64,000 nt of DNA from Balanoglossus misakiensis (taxonomy: Eukaryota > Animalia > Hemichordata), in the NCBI GenBank assembly GCA_040954595.2, contig CM082596.2, positions 8,197,124-8,261,123 of the forward strand. Reading direction: 5' to 3'. A model generated the notes under the pieces. It worked only from the letters and a program-made list of their open reading frames with translations. It was not told the DNA's origin and made no database searches. Shown piece after piece: positions 705 to 62,500 of this stretch (position 1 is the first letter of the stretch; every line of letters starts with the position of its first letter). The position numbers were made by a program, and so were the translations under genes.

Positions 705-7287
<6,583 letters not shown>

Positions 7288-23782: not shown

Positions 23783-23846
<64 letters not shown>

Positions 23847-26238
23847 CGAGTATATGCCCCGCTTTCAGCCTCTCTGGGTGCATGTGGTGGTTCCACGAAC
23901 CGAAGCGACGGCTGGATCTTCTCGCCCAATTTCCCTGGCGTGTACAAAGGCAGCCACGACTGTGTGTGGACCGTCACCGGGGCAACAGGCCGCGTCTTCA
24001 ACGTCACCTTCAGGATGTTCTACCTCGACCCGATGATCAAGACCAAACCGCAAGACGAGATCATATTCCACAACATCGGCCCGTCTGGCACCGTCACCAT
24101 GACCGGAGAGGGTAAATTCCGACACCTGCGCGGGGTCAAACCTCACAACGTGGGCATCACAGCAGGCAATGTACTAAAGGTTCACTTCAAATCAAGTTTT
24201 TCGTCGAACGGTGTAGGATTCGCCGTTCATTACAGAGGTATGTACTTCAGTACTACAAAGAAAGATTTCAGTTCCGTTTGCATAGCTATGTACTCAATAA
24301 CCCTCCATGTTACTATAAACTGACTGGAGCACAAATATGTATTTGTCACGGGATATAAATGATTTTAATCACACCATTTCAGACAAAAACAATCAAACGT
24401 ATGCTTATCCCATCCTCCGACAAATTTACAGGTGGGAAATACATATAAGCCCCCAGACATTTACTTTCAGATACTTTCTTCCAGTATTGTTTATTCTTTG
24501 AAGTCATGTATGACAGCGTGACATCGCCACTGCACGCAAAGGCTACTAGAGGCTATGATCAACAGAATACTGGCGCAACATGTCAATGATGTCAGTATGC
24601 TTTAGGAAGAAGAGTAACATCATATACACAGAACAAAGCCATATTGAATCAGTCATCGTCGCAAACCACGGCCCTTTTACGGCAGCGCTCTGCCACACTG
24701 TTGGGCACCCGAGAAACACTATATAAAATTACTGTCTCCTTACATTTACTGTTCGGGCACACTTTATCAAAATGAAATTAATAACAAATTTTAAACCGTC
24801 GATCGATCCCGACGTTCATTCTGACAGAACTAGATCGCGCGGGATGTGACGACGGCGCCAACACCGAAGAAACACGGTCTTTTGGGTCTGAAGAGAATGA
24901 CCATGGCGATAACCTGTCGCCAAAAGAACTTGCAGACGGGAACGAAACTCAGTTGTGTGAGTATCAGAACATCTAGGTGGTGTCGATTAAATTATAACAA
25001 TAAATATGAGCAAACATTTCAAAAATGCAAAGTACGTCTGTTATGATTTTGTGACAGCTCAGCAGTAGACGTCAAAGTCAATACGATTGTCTGAATATAT
25101 TTAAATTGGTTTTAGCTTTACTTATGAAAATTATAGTTAAATGTCAGATGGGGGAGAATATAGAGAAAAAAGGGAAGCGACAATGTTCTTTTCGCAAAAG
25201 ACCGATATTGATTCGAATCTGAAATTATTGCAAATATCTCCAGGATGGTAATGACAAAACTGCCAAGCGATAAAAATTTGAAAGTGCCGTACGTTAACGT
25301 TGTAAATCGGAAGTGTCGTTAACTTTTGTATTCTTATTTCCTTAGTTACAGTTTTCCAAGTTATTGTTGTGTCGTTGCTAGTGTTACTGGTGCTGATAAA
25401 CACTGCCATCTTTGTTTACGTGGTCCACACTAGAGAAAGGTGAGGTTATGGTGATTTGTGTTTCTTTCAATTTGAATATGCTCGATCGATTTGATCGATC
25501 GATCAATCAATCAATCAACAATCAAGTATATATACCTACCGGTCGAGCAACATATAATCGTCATGATTTGCTTAATTTGGCTTGATAACCAATTAATGGC
25601 CTAAACTTTAAATTCTGTTCATTTCCTTGTGATGGGAGACAGCTTATACTTCACCATGTATGGATTGTCCTAGACTTGCTCCAAGTCTATGGGCTTCATT
25701 ATGTGTAGGGAACGCGTAGGCCCGCCACCCGAAACCACAAGCTCAGTCCCAAATTCGAAACTCACCTCACTACCAAAAACACGCTCAAGGCAAGCATGCA
25801 CGTAAAAAGTATTGCAATTATATATTAAGACAAAAAAACACCGAAAACACAAAAAGTATTGAGATTTAAAAATCACCAAGCGACTAGTGGGCTAGTCTAG
25901 GATTGTCCCTCCGACGTGGGATCACGTTGTCTTTCATTGTGCTATTTTGTTTTCGTTCCATCATCAGAGCTAGAAGGAATACCCACTCTAACAAATCTGC
26001 TAATGTAGGCTACATGTCGCTGAGCAGACTGCCAAGCGATGTCATGTCCACGCACCGCGATCGCCACCAACACCGAGTCAGCGTGGCTGCATCTCAAGAA
26101 CCGATAAACCGACAGTCACTCCACCTCGACGGTGCTGATGACCAAACCTATGACTATGCCTACTATGAACGTCTACATCACCTGCCTCCCAGGTCAAATA
26201 GTAACTCAACCGACAGCTATCTTGAACCAATAAATTAA
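19282..26238 (+). CDS. Type I membrane protein: signal peptide, degenerate SRCR-like segment, WSC, CUB, TM, Tyr-motif cytoplasmic tail (Kremen-like layout, ~495 aa)
   Basis: Exons: 19282-19351 (signal MRTFILAVLVVMVTG); 21092-21217 and 21856-21999 (less certain; DAGTVCKELG|FPRAL..GQGP); 23060-23344 (WSC: PGYQGCF..CLGRC..CRCGN..C..AVYD); 23869-24237 (CUB: CGG..IFSPNFPGVY..DCVWTV..GFAVHY); 24828-24956; 25346-25439 (TM VFQVIVVSLLVLLVLINTAIFVYVV); 25968-26238. Extracellular exons are symmetric phase 1. Confidence 0.8.
19746..19822. mobile_element. Short hairpin MITE (AATCTGATTAAAATCAGATGTAGG TIR)
   Basis: Inverted repeat AATCTGATTAAAATCAGATGTAGG / CCTACATCTGATTTTAATCAGATT. A second copy lies at ~47388-47487. 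Confidence 0.65.
22063..22864. repeat. ~800-bp compound tetranucleotide microsatellite (TGTC)n/(TGTA)n
   Basis: Directly visible. It explains the three spurious ~295-aa VCMY/VCLS ORFs. Confidence 0.98.
23783..23846. repeat. (ATC)n microsatellite, ~21 units
   Basis: Directly visible, ~22 nt upstream of the CUB exon acceptor. Confidence 0.95.
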
Positions 26239-27501: not shown

Positions 27502-36399
<8,898 letters not shown>

Positions 36400-38159
36400 A
36401 GGTCAACTTAGGTGTAAAAAAAATAGAAATTTCACAAGAATTTTATTTTAGCGAAGTACTGGGATTTTATTTTAGCTGAAAAATGAATCCAGCTAAAAAA
36501 TTGAAAATGCAGTCCTATTCTACATGATACGTACTTCTTCGCAGAACATAAACCGGAAAACTGTGCACACCCGTCTTTTTCCCATAGGATTACATTGATA
36601 ATTGCTAGAAAACATACTTCTGCTATTGTCATTTTCACGAAATTTTATACATAGCTCAAACCTCATTCAAGTAAATATAAATTCATTGGGTCAAATAAAA
36701 TCGTGTGGTCACAGCGCTCTATTTTGAGATAAATTACGTTAAATATTTTGCCCATAGACAAACCATTGGTGAAAAATTCTTCTATTATCGACTAAATTCA
36801 TGGCTCTGTGACCCCTATATTTTATCACGGATTTTCATTTTACATACTCAGGCTATAATCCAAACATCAACAAATAACTGTAACTTTCTACACATGTACA
36901 TGTATGGAAGTTCGTTAATAGGTATTTCAGAAATCTCTTTTCTGCCAGGAAACAAATGTGAATATGAGGTCTTTCTAGTGAATGCAAGGAGGTTTGCAAC
37001 ATTTTATGTATATTTTTGATTGTCATAAGCTCCGGCAATCCTGTACAAAAAACCCTGCTGGGATTAGAGTGATTCTGTAATGAATATCGACCCTCCTTTT
37101 GATATCAGGAATAATTTTTAACAAATAAAATTTGTTTGATGTGATGTGACACTTATTGTTATGAATACATATATTGTATTCTCACACTCCTGGCCGCTGG
37201 GAGTGTGAGATAGAGAGTACGTGTGAGAACAAATCGATCCCAATGAGTTTATGACGTATATTAAATGTCAATCATGCCAGTTCCGTTACAGGTGAATTTC
37301 TCCACAATGCTGTGTGAGGGCGAAGCAAGCTATAACAGTCCCTCGGGCCTTACGGCCATCGCACCACGAAACGCCGAATCGGGCCTACGGCCCTCAAAAG
37401 ATACGGGCCTTACGGCCCTCGCATGAAACACCGAATCGATACACATTAGGCGCGAGGGACTGTCGACAGTCTAGTGTTTGTTGTACACATTCATATTTGA
37501 GTTGTCTGGATAGATTCATGGGGAAATTGATCAAACTACCAGCCTTGCATTAAAATTCATAAATTTTCAAATATTTTCATTGGAAACTGCCCATAGAATC
37601 ATATGAACATGCTGAAAATCTTTACACATATCACAACACCACTAGAAAACTGGAGGGAGAACAGTTGGGTTTCTGTAATGAGTACTGGTATGTCACTGAT
37701 GTCAACAATTTGTCTCGTCACCCTTTCACCACAATGGTTCAGAATACCCATAAAAAAACACAAAATCTAACTACACTATTGTACTAGAGCAAAATGCCTT
37801 GGAAAGAAATACCATTCTACCAATCAATAATATTCTACTCTCAGGTAACTTTTCCTTTAGAAGTCTCTCGTTCAAATGAGTGATTTTCTGGGTAAAATAA
37901 AATGAGAAAAGATATTAATTTTCTGATTTGTTTGACAAGGTATTAACTCCAAGTAAAGTTATTCATGTTAACTTTATGAATGATTGAAGTCCATGTCCAT
38001 GCGTTGCGTCTATTGACATCCTGTGAATAGACAAATTCTTAAAATTCTGATATTCATTTCACACACATGGTTTTGGGTTTAAGTGGGTGGAATTCGACAC
38101 AAATGAATTCCGGTTTTGACATTTTTTTGTCATTTTTCAGCACAAGTTCTGCATTCAGT

Positions 38160-41100
38160 CTATCTGCGTTCTTCCAATTTCTCGAACATCTGTTCAATCA
38201 ATCTGACCATATCGTCTCTTCCCATGGTGCTGAATATTGCCAACAGATTCTCGAAGTTGCTTTCGAAGACAGGTCCCGTTACATGTGGATACTTCTGTTT
38301 TGTTGTTTTCTGGGCCCTTGAAACTTGTGAGGATGATGATGTGTGCATTTCTGCAAGACAATCTTCGGTGGCATCTGTGTCATCTGTGTCATATGTCATG
38401 GTCTCTTGTCCTCGTTGAAATTGGACGCTTGAGTCTAGTGGTTGTGATGATGGTGACATTTTTGCAGCTGTGACTGTGTCTTTTCCCATGGTGTTAAACT
38501 TCGCAATTAGACTATGAACATTAGAAAGAGGTCTCTGTATTGGTCTTTCTGTTTTCTGAGCCTTCACTTCTTCATCAGCAGAATCTTGTTGGGGTGATGA
38601 TGTTGATGACTGTGACATTTTTGCTGAATGACCTTCGGTGGCATCTATGTCATATGAGATGGCACAGGCACCTGCAGCTGTAGTGGTGTCTTGTCCTCGT
38701 CGGAATTGGACGCTTGAGTCTGGTTGTTGTGATGACGGTGACATCGTTGCAAAACCACTATCAACATTTTGTGTGTCATGAGAAGTGGTCCGGAATTCTG
38801 CAGCTGTAGTGGTGTCTTTTCCTCGTTGGAATTGGACGCTTGAGTCTGGTGGTTGTGATGATGGTGACATCGTTGCAATACCACTATCAACATTATGTGT
38901 GTCATGAGAAGTGGTTGTGAATTCTACAGCTGTAGTGGTGTCTTGTCCTCGTTGGAATTGGACGCTTGAGTCTGGTGGTTGTGATGATGGTGACATCGTT
39001 GCAATACCACTATCAACATTATGTGTGTCATGAGAAGTGGTTGTGAATTCTACAGCTGTAGTGGTGTCTTGTCCTCGTTGGAATTGGACGCTTGAGTCTG
39101 GTGGTTGTGATGACGGTGACATCGTTGCAAAACCACTATCAACATTTTGTGTGTCATGAGAAGTGGTCGGGAATTCTGCAGCTGTAGTGGTGTCTTTTCC
39201 TTGTCGGAATTGGACGCTTGAGTCTGGTTGTTGTGATGACGGTGACATCGTTGCCAAACCACTATCAACATTTTGTGTGTCATGAAAAGTGGCCGGGAAT
39301 TCTGCAGCTGTAGTGGTGTCTTGTCCTCGTTGGAATTGGACGCTTGAGTCTGGTTGTTGTGATGATGGTGACATCGTTGCCAAACCACTATCAACATTTT
39401 GTGTGTCATGAAAAGTGGCCGGGAATTCTGCAGCTGTAGTGGTGTCTTGTCCTCGTCGAAGTTGTTTCTTCTCTGCGCATCTACGACACCACTCGTCGAA
39501 GATGCAGTCTGTAACTGGTTTGCCTGCCAGACGTGCCGCTTCTTTCAGTACCATGACATCTGTGTTCCTGATTCCCATATGTTGAGCCATTTTGCCATAG
39601 TGCAGAGGCTCTATAGTTTCAATATCCATTGTCAGGGTCAGTGTTTTTCTGGTTTCTTCAAGCATCCATTTGATATCACAGCGTTTCCATTTCTTCAGTA
39701 AGATTGTTGTGTCATGACCTTGACAAAGCAGGTCACAAACATCTTCTGCTTTACCAACTTTTTTGTTGTACACTTTCTTTCCCATGTCTTCTGCACGTAG
39801 CACATCATTGAGAGTGTAAAAACCAACTTTTTCCATGTTGCTGTGGTTTGCAAGAGAATCTGCACTCAGGATAAGCTGATTCATCCTGTTGCCTGGACAC
39901 GCGATCGAGAAGACATCCTGTATGTCTTTGGAAACCATCTCAAGAAGCTTGTAGCCCTCACCAATCGACTTCTTGTCTTCAACTCGTACGCAGACATTGA
40001 CTGCCCTTCTGCCATTGGTCATAAAGACAAGACCTTCAACATCATGACACACTTTGATACCATTTCTCCATAAGCCACTGGGCGGTTGGCCAAGCTCTGT
40101 GAAATGCTTATATAGACGGGTCTGTAATCTTGGGAAAAAGCCTGCCGTGAAGGAATCTGTTTCATCATGGCATTCAAAACGTCTTCCAAGGTAGATTGTC
40201 TTCATACGATTCAATTCCCATTGATCTTCAGGCATATCATCGTCTTGAAGCCCTGGTATGAGGAACAGTTTCTCTCCAGTCTTTGTGATGCCCTTTGCTG
40301 GACAGAGAAGCTCAAAATCCTCCAGAAGGTCGATGAGAAGTTTGATGTTTACACCTTCACCAACTACATCTTCTATCTTATCCAAGGTCTGAAAGCGATC
40401 TCTCTCGAATCTGGAACTGAACTGTGCAAATAAATGGGTAGCCAACATTGGTCCAAATATCCTGTAACACAACCAGCTTGGATCCAATACCACGACATCT
40501 TCTCTTTCCGAAGATGACTTCTTCACAAACAAAAGCTGTACACAAGAAAAGAAATATTTCAATAAATGAAAATCTGTATGTTGCACATTTCTGTAATTGC
40601 AAGGCACAATATGAAATTTAACGTATAAGCTCCAACAAAATAATATGGCTGGCATGTGGTGAGATTTAGATAAATTATTATCAATGACATACTGAAGTTT
40701 CTTGTTACTGACCTCTCCTATGTCATGCAGGTAGTTGGTGGCTTTTTGTAAAAAACTTTCGTCAATCGTAGGATATTTTTCTTTGATTTTTGCCATGTAC
40801 AATGTCCAATAAATGCCAGGGAACTCCTTGTCATATAATTCACTCTTCATTTCCATTATTTTGGCACAAACACTTGGAAGAGTTTTCACTGTCTAAGAAT
40901 GAAAAGAAATTGATAACATGTCAAATGTTATGTGAAGTAGCCACATTTATTTCATTCAGTAAAAAAGTCATCGGGGGAAATTTTAAATAACACCATGACT
41001 TGTTTACAAGTCTCACAAAATGACACATAAAACAAGGCATTATGTTTATGCATTCCAGTCAACTTTTGCCAAAGTAGAAATTCAAATTTAGCAGACTGAG

Positions 41101-44100
41101 TATGATGCTTGTCCGGTGGTTTTACATTAACTGGACTATTATAGTGTATTTATGTTTATAAAGCTTAACTATTCAGAGGCAAAATATTGTTACCTTTTTC
41201 TGATTTAAACAGTCACGGATTTTCTTCATTTCACTGCCTGTAGAATCACGGCAATTCAACAGAAATTTGTCACTCACTATGTCTAAATTCTCTTGAAACA
41301 TAGTCTGTGCTTTTGTCAGAATTTCCTCCAGCATATGGTTTGCTGTGAATTATAAAGAGATGACAATATTAATTGCCAGATTACTCCATATGCAGAAACT
41401 AAGGCAAAAAAAGTTCTGCTGTGAACCTTAATCTCTCAATAGTGCATAAAACAGTCATTAACCCTTTCACCCCAGTTCCCTCCATCCATCCGTCCGTCCG
41501 TCATACATACATACATACATACATATTGGTACATACATGTACATATGAACTAGATTGTTAGATTTGCATATGAGCTGACCAACCTAGAGCCTCGTATTCA
41601 TTCTCCACCTCATCAGCTCGACTTGCAACCAGTATCACCACTGGTTTCTTGTATCCTTCACCTGGCTGATCGAATGAATACCTGTCCATGTGGGTTGTTC
41701 CTTTCAGAAACCGCAACCAAAACAAAATCTACAAATGAGAATATTTGTATAAATTATACAAATATTTTATTAATTTTGAGGCAAATTTATGAGATTATAA
41801 TTCAAGAAAAGTGTGATATTTTGACAATGATCAGTTTCTTCTGTCTTGGGGTATGGAAAGTGATAAATGATGCAATTCATATGGACTTCCAGTCTCATGC
41901 ATGTCTAGTAAATTTTTTGTGAAGATTCTTACCTGTGGGAACACACGTTCATAGCTGCTAAGTTGACCTTTCTCGTCTGTAGCTTTGAACACCAATATGG
42001 AGACAGCATTGGGTGCTCCCAGAAACATGTTATGAGTGACGTAATACTCAGCCTGGCCGGCAAAATCCCAAACACTGCACTTTCCTACGCCAGGAATATG
42101 AACACTTTGGACATCAATACCAGGTGTGGGAATGTGTCCACTGTGTTCAAATTCCATGGTTGTTTCTTCACTCTTTGATAAGGAAAAGTGAAAGAAAAAA
42201 ATTTCACTATATACAAACACAAAATGTCACAATTTCATCAACCATGCGTATGCTTTAATTATCCAAAGTTCACCTGTGGCATTCTGTCAGTAGTTTTCTA
42301 ATACATGTATGCACCATACATACAATGTGAATGTTACGGCTAAACTAAAACTTTTATGCAAATTAATCAATATCAACATACCCTCTGAAGTGACTTGAAT
42401 AGTGTAGTCTTACCAACTCCACCATCTCCAGCAAAGAACAACTTAAGAGTGTCGCATTCCTCACCTGATTCCTTCATCAGGTCACTGAACTCATTTCGTT
42501 TCTTTTTTAATAAAAAAAAAAAATCATGAAAATGCATTTATGCTATATTTGTGAGTTTGACACCACAGTGATCTCATCCATATGAATGAACACTTTTAAT
42601 CAATAAGAATTACCACATTTCAGGTTATATATTGATAAAATTCATGGTAATATGAAAATTACACTCACCCTAATGTAATCCAATAGCACATCCTTAGCAG
42701 TGCGATTTACAGCGACATCAAGCGGTGTCCTTCCGGTCTAAGTTTTATTAGGATAAAAAGTATTAAAACTGAATTATTATGTTGATGTTGATAAGATAAT
42801 AGTAGTATTAAATAATGTAACTGATAACATCAATGATTCAAAATGTATTAAATTCCAAAATAATGTTGAAGTCAATTCTATTTCATATTTTATGAAAAAA
42901 GAATGACAACATCATGTGACATCATGAACAAAATCTAAATGCACCCAATTGAATCTTTTACAATTGTCAGCAGATTTTGAATGAAACTATCAAGAAACTT
43001 ACATATTAACAAAATGAAAGTTGATCAGAAAACACGGTAGAGTGTCATGAAATGAAATATTTGAAAATGGAAAAATACCTGATTTTTGCAGTCAATATCA
43101 GCTCCATATTGTAACAGCAGTTTCACAACTTTTCCATAATCCCTGTAATTATATACTTCCCCCATTGCTGCCATATGAAGTGCTGTGTTGCCATCCTATA
43201 CAAAGAAACAAAAGCATAATCAGCGCACCAACAAAGTTACTGGAATCATTATCAGAGGTACAGAAAACTAGTCACAGAATGGTAGTACATGTCTGTTAAG
43301 GCAGTTTCCTTGTGAGTATGTAATTTCTTGCCAAAACTGTGGTGTTCAACTAACCTAAATATGTTCTCTGTTTGTTGAGAGATATATTTGAAGAATAACT
43401 AAAACAAAAACTAGCTGTCACTGTATCTTCTTTAAAATAAGGATCCATAGCATTATCAAACAAAGAAACATATTACATTGTAATGGATATTTCTTTCCAT
43501 TAACCTGTAGAAGTCATGGTATTTACCTTGTTTTGAATGTTAGCATCAGCTTTGTGTTCCAATAACAATCTGACACGGCCTTCATCACTATCCCTTGCTG
43601 CCTTGTGCAAAGGTGTGTTTCCATCCTGTAAGTAATGAAGGAGGAGCATGAGAATAATATGTCACAAAAATTGAAATGTAATATGAGGTTTCCTTAAACA
43701 AACAAACAAACAAATACATGTTTGTTTGTTGATTAGAATTAACCTATAGAAGTCAGGTTTGTATTTACCTTGTTTTGTATGTTAGCATCAGCTTTGTGTT
43801 CCAATAACAATTTGACATGGCCTTCACCGCCATCCCTTGCTGCAGAGTGCAAAGGTGTGTCTCCATCCTGTAAGTAATGAAGGAGGAGCATGAGAATAAT
43901 GTCACAAAAATTGAAATGTAATGTGAGATTTCCTTAAACAAACACACAAACAAATGTTTATATGTTGATTAGAATTAACCTGTAGAAGTCATGTTGGTAT
44001 TTACCTTGTTTTGTATGTTAGCATCAGCTTTGTGTTCCAATAACAATCTGAGACAGCCTTCATCACCAGACCTTGCTGCTGCATAGTGCAAAGGTGTGTC

Positions 44101-47100
44101 TCCATCCTGTAAGTAATGAAGGAGGAGCATGAGAACAATGTCACAATAATTGAAATGTAATGTGAGGTTTCCTTAAACAAACAAACAAACAAACAAACAA
44201 ACAAACAAATACATGTTTGTTTGTTGATTAGAATTAACCTATAGAAGTCAGGTTTGTATTTACCTTGTTTTGTATGTTAGCATCAGCTTTGTGTTCCAAT
44301 AACAATTTGACATGGCCTTCACCGCCATCCCTTGCTGCAGAGTGCAAAGGTGTGTCTCCATCCTGTAAGTAATGAAGGAGGAGCATGAGAATAATGTCAC
44401 AAAAATTGAAATGTAATGTGAGATTTCCTTAAACAAACACACAAACAAATGTTTATATGTTGATTAGAATTAACCTGTAGAAGTCATGTTGGTATTTACC
44501 TTGTTTTGTATGTTAGCATCAGCTTTGTGTTCCAATAACAATTTGACATGGCCTTCACCGCCATCCCTTGCTGCAGAGTGCAAAGGTGTGTCTCCATCCT
44601 GTAAGTAATGAAGGAGGAGCATGAGAATAATGTCACAAAAATTGAAATGTAATGTGAGATTTCCTTAAACAAACACACAAACAAATGTTTATATGTTGAT
44701 TAGAATTAACCTGTAGAAGTCATGTTGGTATTTACCTTGTTTTGTATGTTAGCATCAGCTTTGTGTTCCAATAACAATCTGAGACAGCCTTCATCACCAG
44801 ACCTTGCTGCTGCATAGTGCAAAGGTGTGTCTCCATCCTGTAAGTAATGAAGGAGGAGCATGAGAACAATGTCACAATAATTGAAATGTAATGTGAGGTT
44901 TCCTTAAACAAACAAACAAACAAACAAACAAACAAACAAATACATGTTTGTTTGTTGATTAGAATTAACCTATAGAAGTCAGGTTTGTATTTACCTTGTT
45001 TTGTATGTTAGCATCAGCTTTGTGTTCCAATAACAATTTGACATGGCCTTCACCGCCATCCCTTGCTGCAGAGTGCAAAGGTGTGTCTCCATCCTGTAAG
45101 TAATGAAGGAGGAGCATGAGAATAATGTCACAAAAATTGAAATGTAATGTGAGATTTCCTTAAACAAACACACAAACAAATGTTTATATGTTGATTAGAA
45201 TTAACCTGTAGAAGTCATGTTGGTATTTACCTTGTTTTGTATGTTAGCATCAGCTTTGTGTTCCAATAACAATCTGAGACAGCCTTCATCACCAGACCTT
45301 GCTGCTGCATAGTGCAAAGGTGTGTCTCCATCCTGTAAGTAATGAAGGAGGAGCATGAGAACAATGTCACAATAATTGAAATGTAATGTGAGGTTTCCTT
45401 AAACAAACAAACAAACAAACAAACAAACAAATACATGTCTGTTTGTTGATTAGAATTAACCTATAGAAGTCAGGTTTGTATTTACCTTGTTTTGTATGTT
45501 AGCATCAGCTTTGTGTTCCAATAACAATCTGACACGGTCTTCATGAACATACCTTGCTGAAATGTGCAAAGGTGTGTTTCCATCCTGTAAGTAATGAAGG
45601 AGGAGCATGAGAACAATGTCACAATAATTGAAATGTAATGTTGGGTTTCCTAAACAAACAAGCAAATGTTTATATTTCATAGAATTAACCTGTAGAAGTC
45701 AGGTTTGTATTTACCTTGTTTTGTATGTTAGCATCAGCTTTGTGTTCCAATAACAATCTGACACGGCCTCCATCACCATACCTTGCTGCTGCAAAGTGCA
45801 AAGGTGTGTTTCCATCCTGTAAGTAATGAAGGAGGAGCATGAGAACAATGTCACAATAATTGAAATGTAATGTGGGGTTTCCTTGAACAAACAAACAAAC
45901 AAACAAACAAACAATCAAATGTTTTTATGTTGATTAGAATTAACCTGTAGAAGTCATGTTGGTATTTACCTTGTTTTGTATGTTAGCATCAGCTTTGTGT
46001 TCCAATAACAATCTGACACGGCCTTCATCATCATCCCTTGCTGCTGCAGAGTGCAAAGGTGTGTCTCCATCCTGTAAGTAATGAAGGAGGAGCATGAGAA
46101 CAGTGTCACAAAAATTGAAATGCTACAGAGACTAGCCATTGACCAGTGAGCACAATGGGACCAATATAAAAGGCAAAATTTTGGGTTCACCTGTAACACC
46201 TGCTTAACTCATTAATTATGTGCATAACTAATTCCAGGCTAACTAATAGGGCCAGAGGTTTTGTTCCTGTTGGACATGGGCCAGTATAGGGTCAAAAATT
46301 TTGGGTGACCTCAGGTGACCGTTGACCTACCTTCCTATATCTCCGCATCCAGAGCAATTACAGACTTGGCGTTTGGAGGGTTGGGACTAAAATTGAAAAG
46401 CCATAGGTCACCTGTGACACCTGCTTACCTCATTAGTTATGTGCATACCTAATTCCAGGCTAACCAATAGGGCTAGAGGTTAGATTTTTGTTGAACATGG
46501 ACAATTATGGGGTCAAAATTTTTTGCTCAAATTTCGGATGACCTCAGGTGACTTTTGACCTACTTTCCTATATCTCGGCATCCACAGCTGTATACTTGGC
46601 GTTTGGAGGGTTGGGACTAACATGGACAAGCCAAATTTGGGGGCCACCTGTGACACCTGCTTATCTCATTAATTATGTGCATACCTAATTCCAGGCTAAC
46701 CAATATGGCTAAAGGTTACGTTCTTGTGGGACATGGACCAGTATGGGGTCAAAATTATCTCCCAAATTTCTGTTGACCACACATGACCTTTGACGTAAAT
46801 ATGACGTAAATGCAAAATACTACATAAATTAACAGTCTGCTGACTTTATATTTGGAAAGAATAAGCACACACCTGTAATGATTACCGCTATGTGCTATGT
46901 TCTATGTTGGCTTGGGCCCGCTATTGCTGCTTGGCAGCTATATTTGGAATTGTTATTTATATATGCAGAATATAATAAAACTCTTGTATCCGTAGTGGCC
47001 ATTCACCCAAAAGAAATGACTATTTGCACACTCTTTGCAGCAAGAGGAAACATTTGATTGTGTGCATGGTTTAAATGACACTCTAAAAAAGTAATGTTTA

Positions 47101-50100
47101 CATGACTGTCCATGAAAGATTCATCCAGAGTTTCCACTGTGGTCATGAAGTCAATCAACATGTGTAGCCGCTTTCATTACCCCTTTAAATGAAGTAATAA
47201 GTCAGTTCACGTACCTCATTCTTAGCATTGACGTCTGCACGATGACTTATCAACACCTTGACAGCATCCACTCCACCTTTCTCGCACGCTGCATGCAATG
47301 CCGTAGAATCACTCTGGAATGAAGGCGTTTAAAGTTGGAATAAAAATGATATCATCATTCAATTTGATACATTGCATGTGTGTCAACCATCTGATTAAAA
47401 TCAGATGTAGGGAACGGCGACATGGTTTTTTTATGCTGTCCTAAAAAAAATACGTCCCGTTCCCTACATCTGATTTTAATCAGATGGGTGTGTCAAGTTG
47501 AAGTGTTTGATCTTTTGTTGAAGAACTCAAAAAATGTCATCACTTTGAGCTTCAGTGCACAGCTCTTATTATAATATATGTACTTGAACCCGATGATCTT
47601 GGTAATTTTTTCTGAGGTTGAGTGGATAATTCACTGTACATGTATGAGAGAGATTATGATTGAACTGACAATTTACAGGTATTGAGACGGTTTCAGTAAG
47701 AAAGATGTCTTTTGCATGCGATATGCCATACTGCCATCAGATACAGTGTAATGTACTGATATGGCATGTCATTATCTGCTATGTCTTTCACCAAGCAATG
47801 ATGTTTGATTCATCCCATCATCATGCCTGTTATCAGCACAAGTATAACAGGGACCATCACAACAGGTTGGAACATCCATTAATTGTGACAGGGTGGGAGA
47901 CCAAAATTTGATAAGTAGCTTAATTTTCTATTTGACAAACTCAAACCATTCGCGTGTTACCGGTATTGCTAATTATATTACTATGGCCTGTGCGGCGCAT
48001 TTTAATTGGTCGAGATGAACGACGTCACTGACTGTGGCTAAATTTGTATATGTGACCGTATACCTTTAACAATACCCTCCCTTGTTGTCTCTCCCTCGTT
48101 GTCACCTTTTCGAACCACTTTTCTTACAAAAATACTTTGTCACCTTTTATGGAGTTGAAAAGAACGCAGGTGCATCGTCCTGCTCTCCAGGTGTAGTACG
48201 TCCGTAGAATAATGGAAGCCAATACCATAGTTATTCTACGCATGTTTCGTCTCTTGAAATGTATTAAAACTGCCCTTTTTAGTTGCTTTCATTTGATAAC
48301 TATGCGATCGTCAATAAATGGAAATTAAACCCCAAAACCGTGTACCAAAAAACGTGCAGGAAGGATTTAAAACGGTACGTTTATTATTATCAGCGGCAGT
48401 TAGAACAACTTCGTATAGGCCTTACGGTTTGTTCATAATCGTCGACATGCATGGCATCGTGGACATTGCAGGGTCTATGTCTGCACGCATCGACAAATAC
48501 AATACACGTAGAGCATTGCCTTTGAAAGAAACTTATCCCCGTCGATTTTCCGAATATGTTTTTAAAATCATGAACTTGACATTTCGCCATGTCAGATCCG
48601 CGCAAAATGTGTCTGTTTATTGGAAATGACACGTCGAATGTGTAAAGAGCGCTGCGCGTCGAAGTTGCTGACGTCACTGTAGTATTTTCAACTCGCGTCT
48701 TCTGCTTGCGCAGGAAGTGAAAGTGAATTAACCCATCGGAACGTTGCCGTTTTTGACACCCGGTTTGTACTTTGAAGCCCAAAATTGTGGGTGTCGTTCC
48801 ACTTTAACGTTTGTTTATGGGCGGGGGCTCGAGGAAAGCCAAAATTCATGGGCTCGGAAGCCTCACCCATAAATTTTTGGCTTTCCCCTCGCCCTTGCCC
48901 ATAAACACGGAACCGTGCCATAAACAAACGTTAATGGTCAGGGCGCTGTCCATTATTTCTATAATATTTTGAGTGAAACTGCTTTTGATGAGCTATAACA
49001 TGAAACAGTGGAAATCTAGAAGAGCATTGAGCTACTAGCAGTTAAAGCTTATTCTTTTTTTTAAAACAGCAGACTAACTTCTTTGTAAATTTCTACATCA
49101 CTTGATCGACACTAAAGTCATATGAAAACCTGTTGATGATACAAGACCTAGAGAGTGTAGTTGTATGATGGCTTCTCTTTGCCTTTTATATTGGTCAGGT
49201 GACTTTCAAGAGAAGGGCTTCAAGACTATCATGAATTTTACAAATGTATTTCCTATCACAATTACATAATGCTAAAATGGAAATTATAATTCTGATATTT
49301 AGAATTCAAATTCTTTGCTGTTTCATAAGTAGTTATCCATGTGTTATTTTTACGCGGGATGACTTCCGGTTGATATGAAACACTTACCCATGGCCAGCTA
49401 AGGTATCTACCCCTTGCATTGACATTATATCCATCAGCTATCAGCGACTGGATCTTTGCAACGTCACCACGCGCTGCAGCATTGATGAGAACCTGCAACA
49501 TTCAATTCGCAAAACTAGTCATGTTTTTAAATATTCTCAAAATGCAATCATAAAATAGCAAAAATATAATAGGAAAACATGGAAATCTTCATTTATGAAG
49601 ACAAACCGTGACACACTGTGGATAAAATGAAGACATCATATAGTGGGGAAACACTAGACTGTGTGATTATTTTTCAACAAGATAAAACAGAATCTCAAAA
49701 GAGCAGCATGCAAACTGAAACACAAAAACCTGTGGTGGCACTCCCAAGTAGAACTGGCATTGTTTGTTCAGCAAAATTTCAAGATAGCCCCTTTCTTGAC
49801 AAAAATACTCATTATTTTGTGAAATACATGTATAGTTAAAAATTAGACAAAAATGCACCCCCTAATGTACATAAACTCTCTTGGCAATAATATTTTTATT
49901 ACATGCCTCACCAGGTTGGTTTCATTGGATTGCCGTAACCTGGGCAACCAGTCAATATGACATTCACTGACATTCCACATTTTCGGAATTGCCTATTCAA
50001 ATCAATGCACTGATTTTGTACTCACATAGAGGCATGTATATAAAACACAAATAAATTAATTGCCAAGCAAATTAAGTTGCAGCCCTTTGATCTATGATAC

Positions 50101-53511: not shown

Positions 53512-56500
53512 TAATATAGCTGTGAACAGCAATAAGCGGGTTTCGAGACACTGCTAGCCCTATTGGTTCGCCTGGAGATAGATATGTGCATATTTAATTA
53601 GTCAGGGTGGAGGATGTGGGAAAGTTGGTCAAACGTCATGTGAGGTCACCCTAAATATGAGCAGAAAATTTTGACACTATATTGGTCCATGTCCAATAAA
53701 AACCACACATCTAGCCCTATTGGTTCGTGTGTACTTAGTTATGCACATAGTTAGGCAGGTGTCACAGGTGGTCCTAAATTTTGGCTACTTATTTTGGTAC
53801 CATCCTCCCAAACACCTAAGCTGTACCTGCTGTGGATGCCGAGATATGCGGAAGTAGGTCAAAGGTCACCCAAGGTCACCCGAAATTTGGGCAAAAAAAT
53901 TCGACCCAATACTCGTACAGATCCAACAAACACCAGACCTGTAGCCCTGTTGGTTTGCCTTGAATTAGGTATGCACATAATTAATGAGTTAGGCAGGTGT
54001 CACAGGTGACCCTAAATTTTGGCTTCTTATTTTGGTACCATCCACCCAAACACCTAAGCTGTACCTGCTCTGGATGCCGCGATATGAGGAAGTAGGTCAA
54101 AGGTCACCCAAGGTCACCCAAAATGTGGGCAAAAACATTTGACCCCATAGTGGTACATATCCAACAAACACCAGACCTGTAGCCCCCTTGGTTCGCCTAG
54201 AATTAGGTATGCACATAATTAATGAGTTAGGCAGGTGTCACAGGTGACCCTAAATTTTGGCTTCTTATTTTGGTACCATCCACCCAAACACCTAAGCTGT
54301 ACCTGCTGTAAATGCCGAGATATGAGGAAGTAGGTCAAAGGTCACCCAAGGTCATCCCAAATTTTGGGGGATAATTTGACCCCATACTGGTTCATGTCCA
54401 ACAAAAATCAGACCTGTAGCCCTATTGGTTTGCCTGGAATTAGGTATGCACATAATTAATGAGTTAGGCAGGTGTCACAGGTGACCCTTGAATTTGGCTT
54501 CTTATTTTGGTACCATCCACCCAAACACCTAAGCTGTACCTGCTCTGGATGCCGAGATATGCGGAAGAAGGTCAAAGGTCACTCAAGGTCACCCCAAATT
54601 TTGGGGGATAATTTGACCCCATACTGGTCCATGTCTAACAAAAATCAGACCTGTAGCCCTATTGGTTTGCCTCGAATTAGGTATGCACATAATTAATGAG
54701 TTAGGCAGGTGTCACAGGTGACCCTTGAATTAATTTGGCTTCTTTTTGTGGTCCTATGCTGCACACTGGCCGATAGGACTATTGCACCAACCAGAATTCT
54801 ACAAAACGACTTGGCCATAGCTTAACTATAGTGGAATACGTATAGGTATAGATTTCATAAAAAAAATTAATATAAAAAAATCGGTCGATTTTTCATATTA
54901 TTTTTTCCAGTTGGAACTGATTGTTGGAAGGTAGGCTAGCTGCACAATAAATTTGAAGCTGATCAGCCCAGCGGATGTTGAGATATTGGGCATAAATCTA
55001 AGATCCTAGGTGGCCATAGCTTAACTATGGAAAGTATAGGCCTAAGGCTGGGTCCAATGGTCTTGAAAAATATGAAAAATAATGCTTTAAAAATCATCTC
55101 CTCAAAATCGGCAAAGACTTGAACATTGAAATTTTGCATATAGGACCCTGGCCATTTGGTCCACAAAGTTTGTTCAAAGAATTTTGATTCGTCATTTTTT
55201 ATGCAAATGAGATCAATTTTAAACTTTCAATCCAAGATGGCTGCCAGGTCATGTGACCTGTTGCCATAGTTACATGATCAGAAAATTACTTGCTTTGAGT
55301 TTTACCTATGAGCCAAATTTGAAGTCATTGGGTGCAACGGTCTTCGAATAGCGGCCGTTTTTAAGAGTGGGAAGAAGAATAATAATAATAAATATAGCTG
55401 CAAGCAGCAATGGCGGGCCCAAGCCAACATAGCACATAGCAACATAGCAATAAGCATATCTGCTCTGGATGCCAAGATACGGTTAAGTAGGTGAAAGGTC
55501 ACCTGAGGTCATGCAAAATTTTGGCGCAAAATTTTGACCCTATACTGGTCAATGTTCAACAAAAACCAAAACTATAGCCCTATTGGTTAGCCTGGAATTA
55601 GGTATGCACATAATTAATGAGGTAGGCAGGTGTCACAGGTGACCCTCAATTTTGGCTTTTCAATTTTAATCCCAACCCTCCAAACGCCAAGTCTGTACCT
55701 GCTCTGGATGCCAAGATCTGGTAAAGTAGGTCAAAGGTCACCTGAGGTCATGCAACATTTGGGCATGAAATTTTGACCCTATACTGGTCCATGTTCAACA
55801 AAAACCAAACCTATAGCCCTATTGGTTAGCCTGGAATTAGGTATGCACATAATTAATGAGATATACAGGTGTCACAGGTGACCCCCATTTTGGCTTTTCC
55901 ATTTTAGTCCCAACCCTCCAAATGCCAAGTTTGTACCTGCTCTGGATGCCGAGATAAAGGAAAGTAGGTCAAAGGTCACCTGAGGTCACCCAAAATTTGG
56001 GCAAGAAATTTTGACCCTATACTGGTCCATGTCCCACAAGAACGAAACCTCTAGCCCTCTTAGTTAGCCCAGAATTAGGTATGCACATAATTAATGAGTT
56101 AAGCAGGGGTTACAGGTGAGCCTAAAATTTTGCCTTTTATTTTGGTGCCATTGTGCTCACTGACCAATAGACAGTCACTGTACAGGACTATTGCACAGAC
56201 CAGAATTCCACAATAAGACATGGACATAGCTTAACCATAGAGGTATAAGTAAAGGTATAAATTTAATAAAAAAATTAATATAAAAAAATCGGTCGATTTT
56301 TCATAGTATTTTTTTTCGCTTAAAATTATTGACACATGCTAGGCTAGCTGCACACCAAAGTTGGAGATGATCGGCCTAACAGATTTTGAGATATGTATGA
56401 ATATTTATCCAAAATAATATGTGGTCATAGCTTTACTGTGTAAAGTATAGGCCCATGGCTTGGGCGAAAAATATGAAAAATAATACTTAAAAATCTTCTT

Positions 56501-59500
56501 CTCAAAATTGACATGGCCTATGGCCTTGACATTTGGCATGTAGAACCCTGGCCATATGGTCCACAAAGTATGTTAACAGAATTTTGATATGGCAATTCAT
56601 ATGCAAATTAGGCCAATTTGAAAATTTTGCCCATATATGGTCATCAGGTCATGTGACTTATTAAACATTCACAAGGGTACTGCACCAGCTCTCATAGGCC
56701 TGCACCATTGTGCCAAATGTGAGATTTGTAGGTTCAGCCGTTTTCAAGATCTAGCTGGACAAAAAAACGACACAAGAAGAAGAAGAAGAAGAAGAAGTAG
56801 AAGAAAAACCCCAGTAATACCAATAGGGCCCAAGCCTGCTGGGCTTGGGCCCTAAATATAGCTGCAAGCAGCAATAGCGGGCCCAAGCCAACATAGCACA
56901 TAGCAACATAGCAATAAGCATATCTGCTCTGGATGCCAAGATATGGAACAATAGGTCAAAGTTCACCTGAGGTCATGCAAAAATTTGGGCAAGAAATTTT
57001 GACCCTATACTAGTCCATGTTCAATAAAAACCAAACCTATAGCCCTATTGGTTAGCCTGGAATTAGGTATGCACATAATTAATGAGATATGCAGGTGTCA
57101 CAGGTGACCCCCAATTTTGGCTTTTCAATTTTAGTCCCAACCCTCCAAACGCCAAGTCTGTACCTGCCCTGGGTGCCAAGATATGGTAAAGTAGGTCAAA
57201 GGTCACCTTAGGTCATGCAAAATTTGGGCAAGAAATTTTGACCCTATATTGGTCCATGTTCAACAAAAACCAAACCTATAGCCCTATTGGTTAGCCTGGA
57301 ATTAGGTATGCACATAATTAATCAGATATGCAGGTGTCACAGGTGACCCCCCAATTTGGCTTTTCAATTTTAGTCCCAACCCTCCAAACGCCAAGTCTGT
57401 ACCTGCTCTGGATGACGAGATATAGGAAAGTAAGTCAAAGGTCACCTGAGGTCACCAGAAATTTGGGGGAAAATTTTGGACCCCATACTGGTCCATATAA
57501 CACAAGAACGAAACCTCTAGCCCTCTTAGTTAGCCCAGAATTAGGTATGCACATAATTAATGAGTTAAGCAGGTGTTACAGGTGAGCCTAAAATTGTGCC
57601 TTTTATTTTGGTGCCATTGTGCTCACTGACCAACAGACAGTCACTGTACAGGACCATTCCAAAGACAAGAATTCCATAATAAAATGTGGACATAGCTTAA
57701 CTATAGAGGTATAAGTAGCCTAAAGGTATAAATTTAATAAAAAAATTAATATAAAAAAATCGGTCGATTTTTCAAATTAATTTTTTCGCTTAAAATGATT
57801 GACAAATGCTAGGCTAGCTGCACAACAAATTTGGAGTTGATAGGCCCGACAGATTTTGAGATATGTTGGTATTTTTATCTAAAATAATAAGTGGTTATAG
57901 CTTAGCTATAGAAAGTATAGGCCAATGGCTTGGTGAAAAAATATGAAAAATAATACTTAAAAATCTTCTTCTCAAAATGGACTTGGCCCATGGCCTTGAC
58001 ATTTGGCATGTAGGACAATGACCACATGGTCCGCAAAAGTTGCTAAAAGAATTTTGATATCTCCATTCATATACAAATAAGGCCGATTTGAAAATTTTGC
58101 CCATATATGGTCGTCAGGTCACATGACTTATTAAACATTCACAAGGGTACAGCTCATGCTCTCATTGGCCTGCACCATTGTGCCAAGTTTGAGATTTGTT
58201 GGTTCAGCCGTTTTCAAGATGTACTTGACGAAAAAAACGGCACAAGAAGAAGAAGAAGAAGAAGAAAAACTCCAGTAAAAAATATAGCTGCAAGCAGCAA
58301 TAGCGGGCCCAAGCGAACATAGCACATAGCAACATAGCAATAAGCATATCTGCTCAGGATGCCACGATATGGTAAAGTAGGTCAAAGGTCACCTGAGTTC
58401 ATGCAAAATTTGGGCAAGAAATTTTGACCCTATACTGGTACATGTTCAACAAAAACCAAACCTATAGCCCTATTATTTAGCCTGGAATTAGGTATGCACA
58501 TAATCAATGAGGTAGGCAGGTATCACAGGTGACCCCCAATTTTGCCTTTTCAATTTTAGTCCCAACCCTCCAAACGCCAAGTCTGTACCTGCTCTGGATG
58601 CCAAGATATGGTAAAGTAGGTCAAAGGTCACCTGAGGTCATACAAAATTGTGGCAAGAAATTTTGACTCTATACTGGTCCATGTTCAACAAAAACCAAAC
58701 CTATAGCCCTATTGGTTAGCCTGGAATTAGGTATGCACATAATTAATGAGATATGCAGGTGTCACAGGTGACCCCCATTTTGGCTTTTCAATTTTAGTCC
58801 CAACCCTCCAAACGCCAAGTCTGTACCTGCTCCGGATGCCAAGATATGGTAAAGTAGGTCAAAGGTCACCTGAGGTCATACAAAATTTGGGCAAGAAATT
58901 TTGACCCTATACTGGTCCATGTTCAACAAAAAGCAAACCTATAGCCCTATTGGTTAGCCAGGAATTAGGTATGCACATAATTAATGAGATATGCAGGTGT
59001 CACAGGTGACCCCCATTTTGGCTTTTCAGTTTTAGTCCCAACCCTCCAAACGCCAAGTCTGTACCTGCTCTGGATGCCGAGATATAGGAAAGTAGGTCAA
59101 AGGTCACCTGAGGTCACCCAAAATGTGGGCAAAAATTTTTGACCCTATACTGGGCCATGTCCCACAAGAACGAAACCTCTAGCCCTCTTAGTTAGCCCAG
59201 AATTAGGTATGCACATAATTAATGAGTTAAGCAGGTGTTACAGGTGAGCCTAAAATTGTGCCTTTTATTTTGGTGCCATTGTGCTCACTCACCAATAGAC
59301 AGTCACTGTACAGGACTATTGCACAGACCAGAATTCCACAATAAGACATGGACATAGCTTAACCATAGAGGTATAAGCAAAGGTATAAATTTAATAAACA
59401 AATTAATATAAAAAAATCTGTCGATTTTTCATATTATTTTTTTCTGCTTAAAATTATTGACAAATGCTAGGCTTGCTGCACACCAAAGTTGGAGATGATC

Positions 59501-62500
59501 GGCCTAACAGATTTTGAGATATGTATGTATATTTATCCAAAATAATATGTGGTCATAGCTTTACTATGTAAAGTATAGGCCCATGGCTTGGTCAAAAAAT
59601 ATGGAAAATAATACTTAAAAATCTTCTTCTCAAAATTGGCATGGCCAATGGCCTTGACATTTGGCATGTAGGACACTGACCACATGGTCCGCAAAAGTTG
59701 CTAAAAGAATTGTGATATCTCCATTCATATGCAAATAAGGCGGATTTGAAAATTTTGCCCATATATGGTCATCAGGTCACGTGACTAATTAAACATTCAC
59801 AAGGGTACTGCACTAGCTCTCATTGGCCTGCACCATTGTGCCAAGTTTGAAATTGGTAGGTTTAGCAGTTTTCCAGATCTACCTCGCCAAAGAAAATGAC
59901 AGAAGAAGAAAAAGAAGAAGAAGTAGAAGAATATAGCTGCAAGCAGCAATGGCGGGCCCAAGCCAACATAGCACATAGCAACATAGCAATAAGCATATCT
60001 GCTCTGGATGCCAAGATATGGAAAAGTAGGTCAAAGGTCACCTGAGGTCATGCAAAATTTGGGCGAGAAATTTTGACCCTATACTGGTCCATGTTCATCA
60101 AAAACTAAACCTATAGCCCTATTGGTTAGCCTGGAATTAGGTATGCACATAATTAATGAGGTAGGCAGGTGTCACAGGTGACCCCCCAATTTGGCTTTTC
60201 AATTTTAGTCCCAACCATCCAAACGCCAATTCTGTATCTGCTCTGGATGCCAAGATATGGTTAAGTAGGTCAAAGGTCACCTGAGGTCATGCAAAATTTG
60301 GGCAATAAATTTTGACCCTATACTGGTCCACGTTCAACAAAAACCAAACCTATAGCCCTATTGGTTAGCCTGGAATTAGGTATGCACATAATTAATGAGA
60401 TATGCAGGTGTCACAGGTGACCCCTATTTTGGCTTTTCAACTTTAGTCCCAACCCTCCAAACGCCAAGTCTGTACCTGCTCTGGATGCCGAGATATAGGA
60501 AAGTAGGTCAAAGGTCACCTGAGGTCACCCCAAATTTTGGCAAGAAATTTTGACCCTATACTGGTCCATGTCCCACAAGAACGAAACCTCTAGCCCTCTT
60601 AGTTAGCCCAGAATTAGGTATGCACATAATTAATGAGTTAAGCAGGTGTTACAGGTGAGCCTAAAATTGTGCCTTTTATTTTGGTGCCATTGTGCTCACT
60701 GACCAATAGACAGTCACTGTACAGGACTATTGCACAGGCCAGAATTCCACAATAAGACATGGACATAGAGGTATAAGTAAAGGTATAAATTTATTAAAAA
60801 AATTAATATAAAAAAATCCGTCGATTTTTCATATTATTTTTTTTCGCTTAAAATTATTGACAAATGCTAGTCTAGCTGCACACCAAAGTTGGAGATGATT
60901 GGCCTAACAGATTTTGAGATATGTATGCATATTTATCCAAAATAATATGTGGTCATAGCTTTACTATGGAAAGTATAGGCCCATGGCTTGGTAAAAAAAT
61001 ATGAAAAATAATACTTAAAAATCTTCTTCTCAAAATTGGCATGGCCAATGGCCTTGACATTTGGCAAGTAGGACACTGACCACATGGTCCGCAAAAGTTG
61101 CTAAAAGAATTTTGATATCTCCATTCATATGCAAATAAGGCCGATTTGGAAATTTTGCCCATATATGGTCATCAGGTCACGTGACTAATTTAACATTCAC
61201 AAGGGTACTGCACTAGCTCTCATTGGCCTGCACCATTGTGCCAAGTTTGAAATTGTTAGGTTTAGCAGTTTTCCAGATCTACCTCGCCAAAGAAAACGAC
61301 AGAAGAAGAAAAAGAAGAAGAAGAAGTAGAAGAATATAGCTGCAAGCAGCAATAGCGGGCCCAAGCCAACATAGCACATAGCAACATAGCAATAAGCATA
61401 TCTGCTCTGGATATGGAAAAATATGTCAAAGGTCACCTGAGGTCATGCAAAAATTTGGGCAAGAAATTTTGACCCTATACTAGTCCATGTCCGACAAAAA
61501 CCAAACCTATAGCCCTATTGGTTAGCCTGGAATTAGGTATGCACATAATTAATGAGATATGCAGGTGTCACAGGTGACCCCAAATTTTGTCTTTTCAATT
61601 TTAGTCCCAACCCTCCAAACGCCAAGTCTGTACCTGCTCTGGATGCCAAGATATGGTAAAGTAGGTCAAAGGTCACCTGAGGTCATACAAAATTTGGGCA
61701 AGAAATTTTGACCCTATACTGGTCCATGTTCAACAAAAACCAAACCTATAGCCCTATTGGTTAGCCTGGAATTAGGTATGCACATAATTAATGAGATATG
61801 CAGGTGTCACAGGTGACCCCCATTTCGGCTTTTCAATTTTAGTCCCAACCCTCCAAACGCCAAGTCTGTACCTGCTCTGGATGCCAAGATATGGTAAAGT
61901 AGGTCAAAGGTCACCTGAGGTCATACAAAATTTGGGCAAGAAATTTTGACCCTATACTGGTCCATGTTCAACAAAAACCAAACCTATAGCCCTATTAGTT
62001 AGCCTGGAATTAGGTATGCACATAATTAATGAGATATGCAGGTGTCACAGGTGACCCCCATTTCGGCTTTTCAATTTTAGTCCCAACTCTCCAAACGCCA
62101 AGTCTGTACCTGCTCTGGATGCCGAGATATAGGAAAGTAGGTCAAAGGTCACCTGAGGTCACCCAAAAGTTGGGCAAGAAATTTTGACCCTATACTGGTC
62201 CATGTTCAACAAAAACCTAACCTATAGCCCTATTGGTTAGCCTGGAATTAGGTATGCACATAATTAATGAGATATGCAGGTGTCACAGGTGACCCCAAAT
62301 TTTGGCTTTTCAATTTTAGTCCTAACCCTCCAAACGCCAAGTCTGTACCTGCTCTGGATGCCGAGATATAGGAAAGTAGGTCAAAGGTCACCTGAGGTCA
62401 CCCAAAATTTGGGTAAGAAATTTTGACCCCATACTTGTCCATGTTCAACAAAAATCTAACCTCTAGCCCTATTGGTTAGCCTGGAATTAGGTATGCACAT

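Follow-up and report, generated by a model that had tools for sequence, protein, structure and literature searches.

The stretch of Balanoglossus misakiensis DNA analysed here (contig CM082596.2; 64,000 nucleotides (nt) without any N, hereafter the window) carries on its minus strand a gene with ankyrin repeats ahead of a Roc GTPase domain and, directly behind this, a COR domain. As judged from sequence the product is a ROCO protein, for which GTP binding and hydrolysis are predicted from motifs. Within the ankyrin region lies an array of eleven exon-intron units, referred to below as cassettes, and we think it likely that the gene encodes an intracellular recognition receptor whose repeats are diversified in the germline.

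The ROCO gene and its cassette array

Read from 46071 to 43527 on the minus strand, the array (43527..46071) comprises eleven ankyrin exons of two lengths (in order 102, 102, 99, 102, 99, 102, 99, 99, 102, 99 and 99 nt), the shorter occurring six times and the longer five; all are of phase 0 and bounded by GT-AG splice sites. The splice signals are uniform (acceptor ...ttacag and donor gtaaatac at all units), and the ten introns measure 130-157 nt with a TTTG microsatellite in each, the whole span being short at 2.6 kb. Tandem Repeats Finder (TRF) reported a period of 236 with 10.8 copies (score 3669). The Pfam Ank profile was run on four of the eleven exons, which represent four of the six distinct types, and all four scored above the cut-off (34.9-42.7 bits against 21.1). 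The original prediction, made from the sequence alone, had described eleven tandem units of one ankyrin repeat each, 99 or 102 nt long, in phase 0 and with intact splice sites, and this is confirmed; its statement that any cassette could be skipped without a frameshift also stands, as all units are of phase 0 with identical splice signals.

Together with ten further exons, which were picked by eye and positioned by their splice sites, the array yields an open frame of 1,567 amino acids (aa) without an internal stop, in 21 exons, with 19 of the 20 introns in phase 0. When four related proteins were compared with the window by tblastn, only the Roc, COR and last exons were matched, in order. Upstream of the array, and like all parts of the gene on the minus strand, are a candidate first coding exon of 23 codons (49912..49980, from a donor and ATG scan) ending in a phase-0 donor, a 105-nt N-cap ankyrin exon (49388..49492) resembling by eye the N-terminus of the Ptychodera protein P0009, and a 99-nt ankyrin exon outside the array (47215..47313; Pfam Ank 37.5 bits). 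An in-frame ATG immediately before the acceptor of the N-cap exon offers an alternative start, and the relatives start about 10 residues before the N-cap. Downstream follow a 117-nt ankyrin exon (43079..43195; Pfam Ank 38.6 bits) and a C-cap-like exon of 69 nt (42669..42737, from the gene model). These four flanking ankyrin or cap exons (49492-49388, 47313-47215, 43195-43079 and 42737-42669) are likewise of phase 0, and what is peculiar to the array is thus the near-identity of its units rather than the phase-0 exon of one repeat. One-repeat exons of 99 nt are common in animal ankyrin genes. Neither a signal peptide nor a membrane segment was evident by eye in the gene model.

The Roc domain (41194..42501) is encoded by four exons (42501-42382, which holds the P-loop, 42172-41933, 41728-41584 and 41342-41194), recognised by the Pfam Roc profile, G-box motifs and tblastn of relatives. 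The Pfam Roc match falls on exon 42172-41933 with 27.6 bits (cut-off 27), both the P-loop and DxxG motifs are present, and the profile of A1 gave LRRK2 and the C. tepidum Roco as its first matches; NB-ARC appeared in the Pfam scan only as a P-loop match below the cut-off. The COR domain (39684..40892) is spread over exon 40892-40713 and the opening part of the last exon (from 40535). It matches Pfam COR-B with 31 bits (cut-off 27) and COR-A weakly (E 0.19), and structural modelling of the last exon gave a match to the COR domain of C. tepidum (Foldseek E 1.4e-8; Z 14.3, root-mean-square deviation (rmsd) 3.3, 232 aligned). No kinase motif was found in the six frames of the window or in 168 related proteins, and since the calmodulin-regulated kinase domain that DAPK1 carries at its N-terminus is lacking in the model, the 5' end of which is not fixed, the gene is not DAPK1. 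The kinase-less order of ankyrin array, Roc and COR proposed earlier is therefore borne out.

A C-terminal death domain had also been proposed, and here the outcome is mixed: a six-helix fold is predicted, but it has no Pfam or BLASTP match and is split by a low-complexity insert. Helices 1-4 of the predicted domain lie at 39441..39683 and helices 5-6, with the stop codon, at 38160..38255 (both from AlphaFold2 and a fold match); between helices 4 and 5 is a predicted disordered, Ser/Thr/Gln-rich insert of about 375 aa (38304..39431; TRF and AlphaFold2). In the AlphaFold2 model of the last exon, made with a 36-row alignment, residues 293-365 form four helices and residues 761-790 two more, mostly with a predicted local distance difference test score above 90, on either side of a disordered stretch at 369-744. 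The six helices align with the MyD88 death domain (Z 10.4, which is below the caution level that the tool sets for helical bundles; rmsd 2.6, 98 of 103 aligned), death-fold domains make up 18 of the 50 top rows of the fold search, and by tblastn residues 806-862 of the related protein P0154 match 38342-38172. TRF found a 126-bp coding repeat at 38672-39456 on the minus strand (6.2 copies, 95% matches), with a Ser/Thr/Gln-rich unit of 42 aa. The insert lengthens the predicted death-domain loop about tenfold over that of the relatives. As modelled, it could act as a variable, modifiable spacer that tunes signalling.

Cassette turnover and the predicted binding face

The near-identity of the tandem units claimed in the original prediction holds, although only six of the eleven exons and six of the ten introns are distinct. 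Exons 4, 6 and 9 are identical (type A), as are 5, 7, 8 and 10 (type B), giving the order 1, 2, 3, A, B, A, B, B, A, B, 11; with seven of the eleven exons belonging to two types, the phrase 'eleven cassettes' overstates the diversity of the present allele. Comparison of exact runs identified a tandem duplication (43761..45273) in which a run of 782 bp (43761-44542) is repeated at a shift of 731 bp, and shorter exact runs recur at shifts of 495 and 1,226. The introns are mosaics: among nine variable sites there are eight pairs with all four allele combinations (four-gamete pairs), every one of them spanning the microsatellite. This points to crossing-over or conversion between units, with repeated mutation as the alternative reading of the same sites. 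Taken together, the exact duplication and the four-gamete pairs uphold the proposal that recent unequal crossing-over or conversion has diversified the array.

Likeness to an array intron extends over about 50 nt in the intron before cassette 1 and over about 28 nt in the one after cassette 11, as would be expected if, as we infer, the array began as a single exon that was duplicated in tandem with its flanks. An inverted copy of the element with 238-bp units described at the end of this paper occupies 46120-46900; it starts some 50 nt upstream of cassette 1, at the point at which likeness to array introns is lost, and may have cut off the 5' end of the array. When one cassette was compared with the 64-kb window by blastn, only microsatellite matches or matches of 13-16 nt were obtained outside the array. 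There are no inverted or dead cassettes elsewhere in the window, and all those of the array are intact and on the coding strand.

Differences between cassettes are concentrated in one part of the repeat. Eighteen of the 19 variable exon sites fall in codons 3-19 and the remaining one is silent; among the six distinct exons, codons 20-33 show no replacement change (pN, the proportion of replacement differences, is 0). As a yardstick we took positions 2, 3, 5, 10, 13 and 14, which are randomised as the binding surface in one designed-ankyrin library (PMC3308923); a second library uses positions 2, 3, 5, 10, 13 and 33 (PMC4308713). Codon n of the exon corresponds to library position n+2, and one alanine codon was omitted from the 102-nt exons for these counts, which are simple and involve no codon model. 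At the six codons of the library positions pN is 0.21 (six distinct exons) against 0.063 elsewhere, and both may be set beside an exon silent proportion (pS) of 0.035 and an intron divergence of 0.060. Of the sites at library-position codons 6 of 14 segregate, compared with 19 of 147 intron and silent sites (Fisher p 0.01). The variable residues are predicted to lie on one face of the ankyrin solenoid.

Five public runs contain part of the gene, none of them recorded as RNA, and the independent sample used here comes from two of these. X1 and X2 are the two runs of that sample, whilst X5 comes from another study; X4 and X5 share only 0.06 of words and were used only for one contig spanning two cassettes. 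X1 and X2 differ from the window at many sites at full depth, and so represent another individual or a close species. With a 4,286-bp query holding Roc, COR and one cassette, 702 (X1) and 581 (X2) contigs aligned, of which 158 and 127 were less than 90% identical, some with introns of other lengths, and up to 14 contigs share one allele in the Roc-COR exons; a single cassette of 187 bp aligned with 226 and 195 contigs. Such diversity exceeds two alleles of one locus and indicates a multi-copy family, in line with the paralogue diversity that had been anticipated; a pooled sample would not easily yield copies less than 90% identical with other introns. Summed contig depth in X1 is about 100,000 on the cassette bin as opposed to 1,200-2,900 on the Roc-COR exon bins, a measure that is not copy number and was not used as a count.

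From 25 cassette variant rows, one in an intron and one present only in X5 were dropped, leaving 23. Nineteen of the 23 exon rows (at least 2%, X1 and X2) are replacements relative to the reference codon, and 14 of these 19 fall in codons 1, 3, 8, 11 and 12, which are five of the six library-position codons (binomial p 2e-7 on the assumption, not valid here, of independent rows). No variant row of X1 or X2 falls on the third position of codon 1, 3, 11 or 12, a control with the same coverage. One row reads as a stop, but only when set against the lysine codon of the reference; in 99% and 93% of the depth the third base of that codon is changed. In codons 15-19 no row reaches 2% in X1 or X2; a hint that the two commonest types of the window are rare there was set aside, depth being inflated. 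The clustering of replacements at predicted target-facing positions in both the window and this independent sample agrees with the variable ankyrin surface put forward in the original prediction.

Passage from one cassette into the next is seen in a single contig of X1 and a single contig of X5 (with a period of about 268 in X5). As read-derived contigs of two studies hold tandem cassettes, the array as such is no invention of the assembly, the doubt raised at the outset; the exact count of eleven comes from the assembly alone. No contig of the runs spans the whole array, and X1 and X2 show other cassette variants.

Relatives and comparable systems

The best database matches are proteins of Glandiceps, Saccoglossus and Ptychodera (36-54% identity), acorn-worm proteins labelled 'DAPK1-like' that have no kinase; such names are automatic and carry no function. 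A FastTree of 66 rows was made from 160 phmmer matches, 72 of them covering more than 400 query residues, with seven isoform or duplicate identifiers on a drop list; it is unrooted, without a clade test, and contains no kinase-bearing DAPK1. In it the Roc-COR region stands next to a Ptychodera protein (support 100) with which it is 52% identical, within a clade of 16 rows (99) in which all 14 labelled rows are acorn worms and which includes two more Ptychodera proteins. More distant relatives are echinoderm, amphioxus, bowfin and sponge proteins. In the bowfin protein P0058 (948 aa), which its source calls 'death-associated protein kinase 1', ankyrin repeats lie close to the start and a kinase motif is missing, and kinase-less relatives thus reach the vertebrates.

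None of the 30 top relatives has a kinase match, and several of the echinoderm and amphioxus proteins among them end in Death, CARD, caspase or GT4 domains; 31 further relatives include one PARP and one TIR domain. In an amphioxus clade (P0025, P0026, P0027, P0029 and P0033) Roc-COR branches are short whilst the ends are GT4, CARD with caspase, or two or five CARDs, which suggests recent swapping of effectors. P0025 also has near-identical ankyrin repeats. Nearest-repeat identity is at least 0.85 in 3 of 22 sequences, representing two genes, one from Glandiceps and one from Branchiostoma. In the Glandiceps relative, whose repeat consensus is another one, the eight type A repeats vary most at positions 5, 10, 13 and 14 and the six of type B at position 10, followed by 3, 4, 5 and 13. 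Three isoform pairs of relatives were compared, and their differences lie outside the ankyrin repeats.

One of the closest parallels is with the leucine-rich repeat (LRR) ROCOs of brown algae, which are candidate receptors (Zambounis 2012, PMC3341825; Teng 2024, PMC11378527). Common to both are the order of repeats, Roc and COR, the lack of a kinase, membership of a multi-gene family, one repeat per symmetric exon ahead of Roc-COR, intragenic recombination and variable residues on the concave face (predicted in the present case). However, the algal repeats are LRRs in exons of 72 nt and phase 2 whereas here they are ankyrins of 99 or 102 nt and phase 0, in an animal host and with a predicted C-terminal death domain, and the algal genes hold inverted or inactivated intronic cassettes of which there are none in the 64-kb window.

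In repeat dynamics the array is comparable to fungal NOD-like receptors (NLRs) with ANK, TPR or WD repeats (Dyrka 2014, PMC4986451; PMC13449251), which likewise have ankyrin repeats that are almost identical except at a few hypervariable residues of the binding face and for whose conserved repeats unequal crossing-over has been proposed. The fungal class is defined by at least 85% internal identity over at least 100 aa and an excess of replacement on the binding face. Here, nearest-repeat identity over 13 repeats has a median of 1.0 and a mean of 0.85, and the excess is found by simple counts. Highly conserved repeats are rare in animals, at 0.8% of ANK, TPR and WD repeat proteins in the fungal-NLR survey. 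In contrast to the NLRs, which have a NACHT or NB-ARC ATPase, the present protein has a Roc-COR GTPase, an intron in each unit and the reverse order, with repeats N-terminal and effector C-terminal. The cassette gene therefore parallels the brown-algal LRR-ROCOs and the fungal ankyrin NLRs but belongs to neither, on account of repeat type or nucleoside triphosphatase (NTPase).

Within animals the order of ankyrin, Roc-COR and death domain, the last being predicted here, is common to DAPK1 and to the 'DAPK1-like' proteins of Ptychodera, Saccoglossus, Glandiceps, echinoderms and amphioxus. Unlike DAPK1, the gene lacks a kinase, belongs to an expanded, fast-changing family, has an array of near-identical cassettes and has a predicted death fold that is interrupted by a long insert made of repeats. 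Bacterial AP-GTPase (Roc-COR) counter-invader systems (Kaur 2021, PMC8195603) similarly combine fast-evolving N-terminal repeats with a variable C-terminal effector and several paralogues per genome, and their described pattern is one of exchanged effector ends that follow repeats and an NTPase; they differ in being LRR-based, intron-free and prokaryotic, with a function that is predicted only. Immune hints have been mentioned for human ROCOs (PMC4104024), and TIR-bearing ROCOs are noted in Aplysia (PMC9334734). No description of an animal ankyrin-cassette ROCO was found in a literature search outside which most subscription papers and supplements lay.

Possible function and neighbouring features

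The explanation that we regard as likely is that the gene is one copy of a multi-copy family of kinase-less ankyrin-Roc-COR proteins acting as germline-diversified intracellular recognition receptors. It is likely that unequal crossing-over or gene conversion in the germline has copied its one-repeat exons and changed their order, and that selection favours new residues at target-facing positions; for both of these steps there is direct support in the data above. The ankyrin solenoid would then bind a fast-changing foreign ligand, Roc-COR would serve as a nucleotide-dependent switch upon binding, the death domain would recruit a death-fold partner for cell-death or NF-kB-type signalling, and each allele or paralogue would offer a different binding surface. 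The switch and death-signalling steps are suggested by the domain order, the effector swapping in relatives and the published parallels. If this is correct, invertebrate deuterostomes hold a large, variable intracellular receptor family hidden under the name 'DAPK1-like', and ROCO GTPases, the family of LRRK2 and DAPK1, gain a concrete role as sensor and switch. The cassette-receptor design would also extend from brown algae (LRR) and fungi (ANK, TPR or WD on NLRs) to animals, with ankyrin on Roc-COR as a third pairing. At 2.6 kb the array is within reach of polymerase chain reaction, long reads and binding screens.

A number of findings weigh against a recognition receptor of this kind. Within the repeat, positions 15-16 vary as much as the library positions (pN 0.34) and 17-21 somewhat, all outside the library set and including a glycine fixed in the library, so that the fit to the library face is good without being clean; furthermore, an additional alanine in helix 1 of five exons may disturb the fold. 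For the window, the test of selection involves six non-independent sequences and two silent sites, and the whole-exon pN/pS of 2.6 is no test by itself. Variant rows from the contigs are linked and were cut at 2% and 80% likeness, and the sample may have been pooled. In 14 of the 22 relatives with at least four detected repeats, the mean nearest-repeat identity is 0.45 or less, with a detection motif that missed some relative proteins. As for the death domain, helical bundles reach Z scores such as that obtained with MyD88 by arrangement alone, the gene has no Pfam Death match, BLASTP against the Pfam-positive relative P0041 gives no death-domain match, and the gap between flanking motifs is 409 aa as opposed to 22-60 aa in ten related sequences.

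The alternative that survives best, although we consider it unlikely, is that the array is an unstable exon-intron minisatellite without a recognition role, in which surface positions vary merely as unconstrained positions of an ankyrin repeat. That seven of eleven exons are of two types, with much of the array being exact duplication, is consistent with this, as are the TTTG microsatellite in every intron, the second unstable repeat (126 bp) in the same gene and the tiny count of silent sites. However, a replacement proportion that exceeds the divergence of introns (0.21 against 0.06) cannot be produced by relaxed constraint, and X1 and X2 are quiet at the third positions of these codons. Frame and splice sites are kept in all eleven exons, the corresponding positions vary in a relative whose repeat consensus differs, and codons 20-33 are without replacement change in the window even though several of them are exposed in ankyrin repeats.

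A much wider scheme, in which acorn worms and, in parallel, echinoderms and amphioxus possess undescribed intracellular immune receptors, is doubtful. These would be Roc-COR switches with swappable death-fold or enzyme ends. In front of the switches the genome would keep a stock of one-exon ankyrin modules, numbering hundreds or more, with exchange from paralogue to paralogue and with further combination inside a single animal, whether through splicing or through somatic recombination. Such an arrangement would give the sister group of chordates a variable receptor system based on ankyrin.

Also unlikely, in our view, is the narrower idea that a repertoire arises within one animal, through the skipping of cassettes in many splice combinations or by somatic rearrangement, as proposed for brown-algal ROCOs. 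With all units in phase 0 and identical splice signals, any skip keeps the frame and in-order skipping could yield 768 distinct strings, and splice variants in LRR content are reported for Ectocarpus ROCOs (PMC11378527). However, frame-safe skipping is arithmetic and not evidence, many skip products would be redundant since neighbouring cassettes are identical, the three compared isoform pairs of relatives differ outside the ankyrin repeats, and the cassettes are all intact and on the coding strand, with no inverted or dead ones in the window, unlike in Ectocarpus.

More improbable still is a receptor for self and non-self or for symbiont sorting, the surface of which would track a polymorphic host or partner protein in the manner of fungal het genes. 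The closest repeat dynamics are indeed those of fungal NLRs, which have so far been studied only in allorecognition (PMC13449251, PMC4986451). However, no signal peptide or membrane segment is evident by eye in the model, and a family of many copies is more in keeping with broad surveillance than with the matching of one locus to another. Nor are solitary acorn worms known to fuse their tissues. It is hardly credible that assembly has falsified the number and order of the cassettes, turning a shorter array into the present one through a false duplication of 731 bp, or that the gene is a decaying paralogue with a disabled death domain. The 782-bp run is indeed letter-identical, no run contig spans the array and the insert splits the death fold. 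Against this, each of the two studies has one read-derived contig with tandem cassettes, the copies make up an irregular mosaic in which microsatellite lengths differ, the frame is open across 21 exons and the model closes a six-helix bundle around the insert at high confidence.

Elsewhere in the window, about 10 kb at 53600-64000 consists of head-to-tail copies of a non-coding element of 1.4-1.7 kb, each with three to six internal 238-bp units that are 78-96% alike, which is probably a transposon-derived satellite. The 238-bp repeats (53.6-64 kb) were considered as a second cassette array and rejected, there being no ankyrin motif in six frames. On the plus strand, the last exons of a cytochrome P450 gene, recognised by its ExxR, PxRF and heme-cysteine motifs, lie at 34689-36410 and are convergent with the ROCO gene. 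Exons for WSC and CUB domains (23047-24320, plus strand) adjoin long TGTA and ATC microsatellites, and exons of a calcineurin-like phosphoesterase are found at 1925-3598 on the minus strand.

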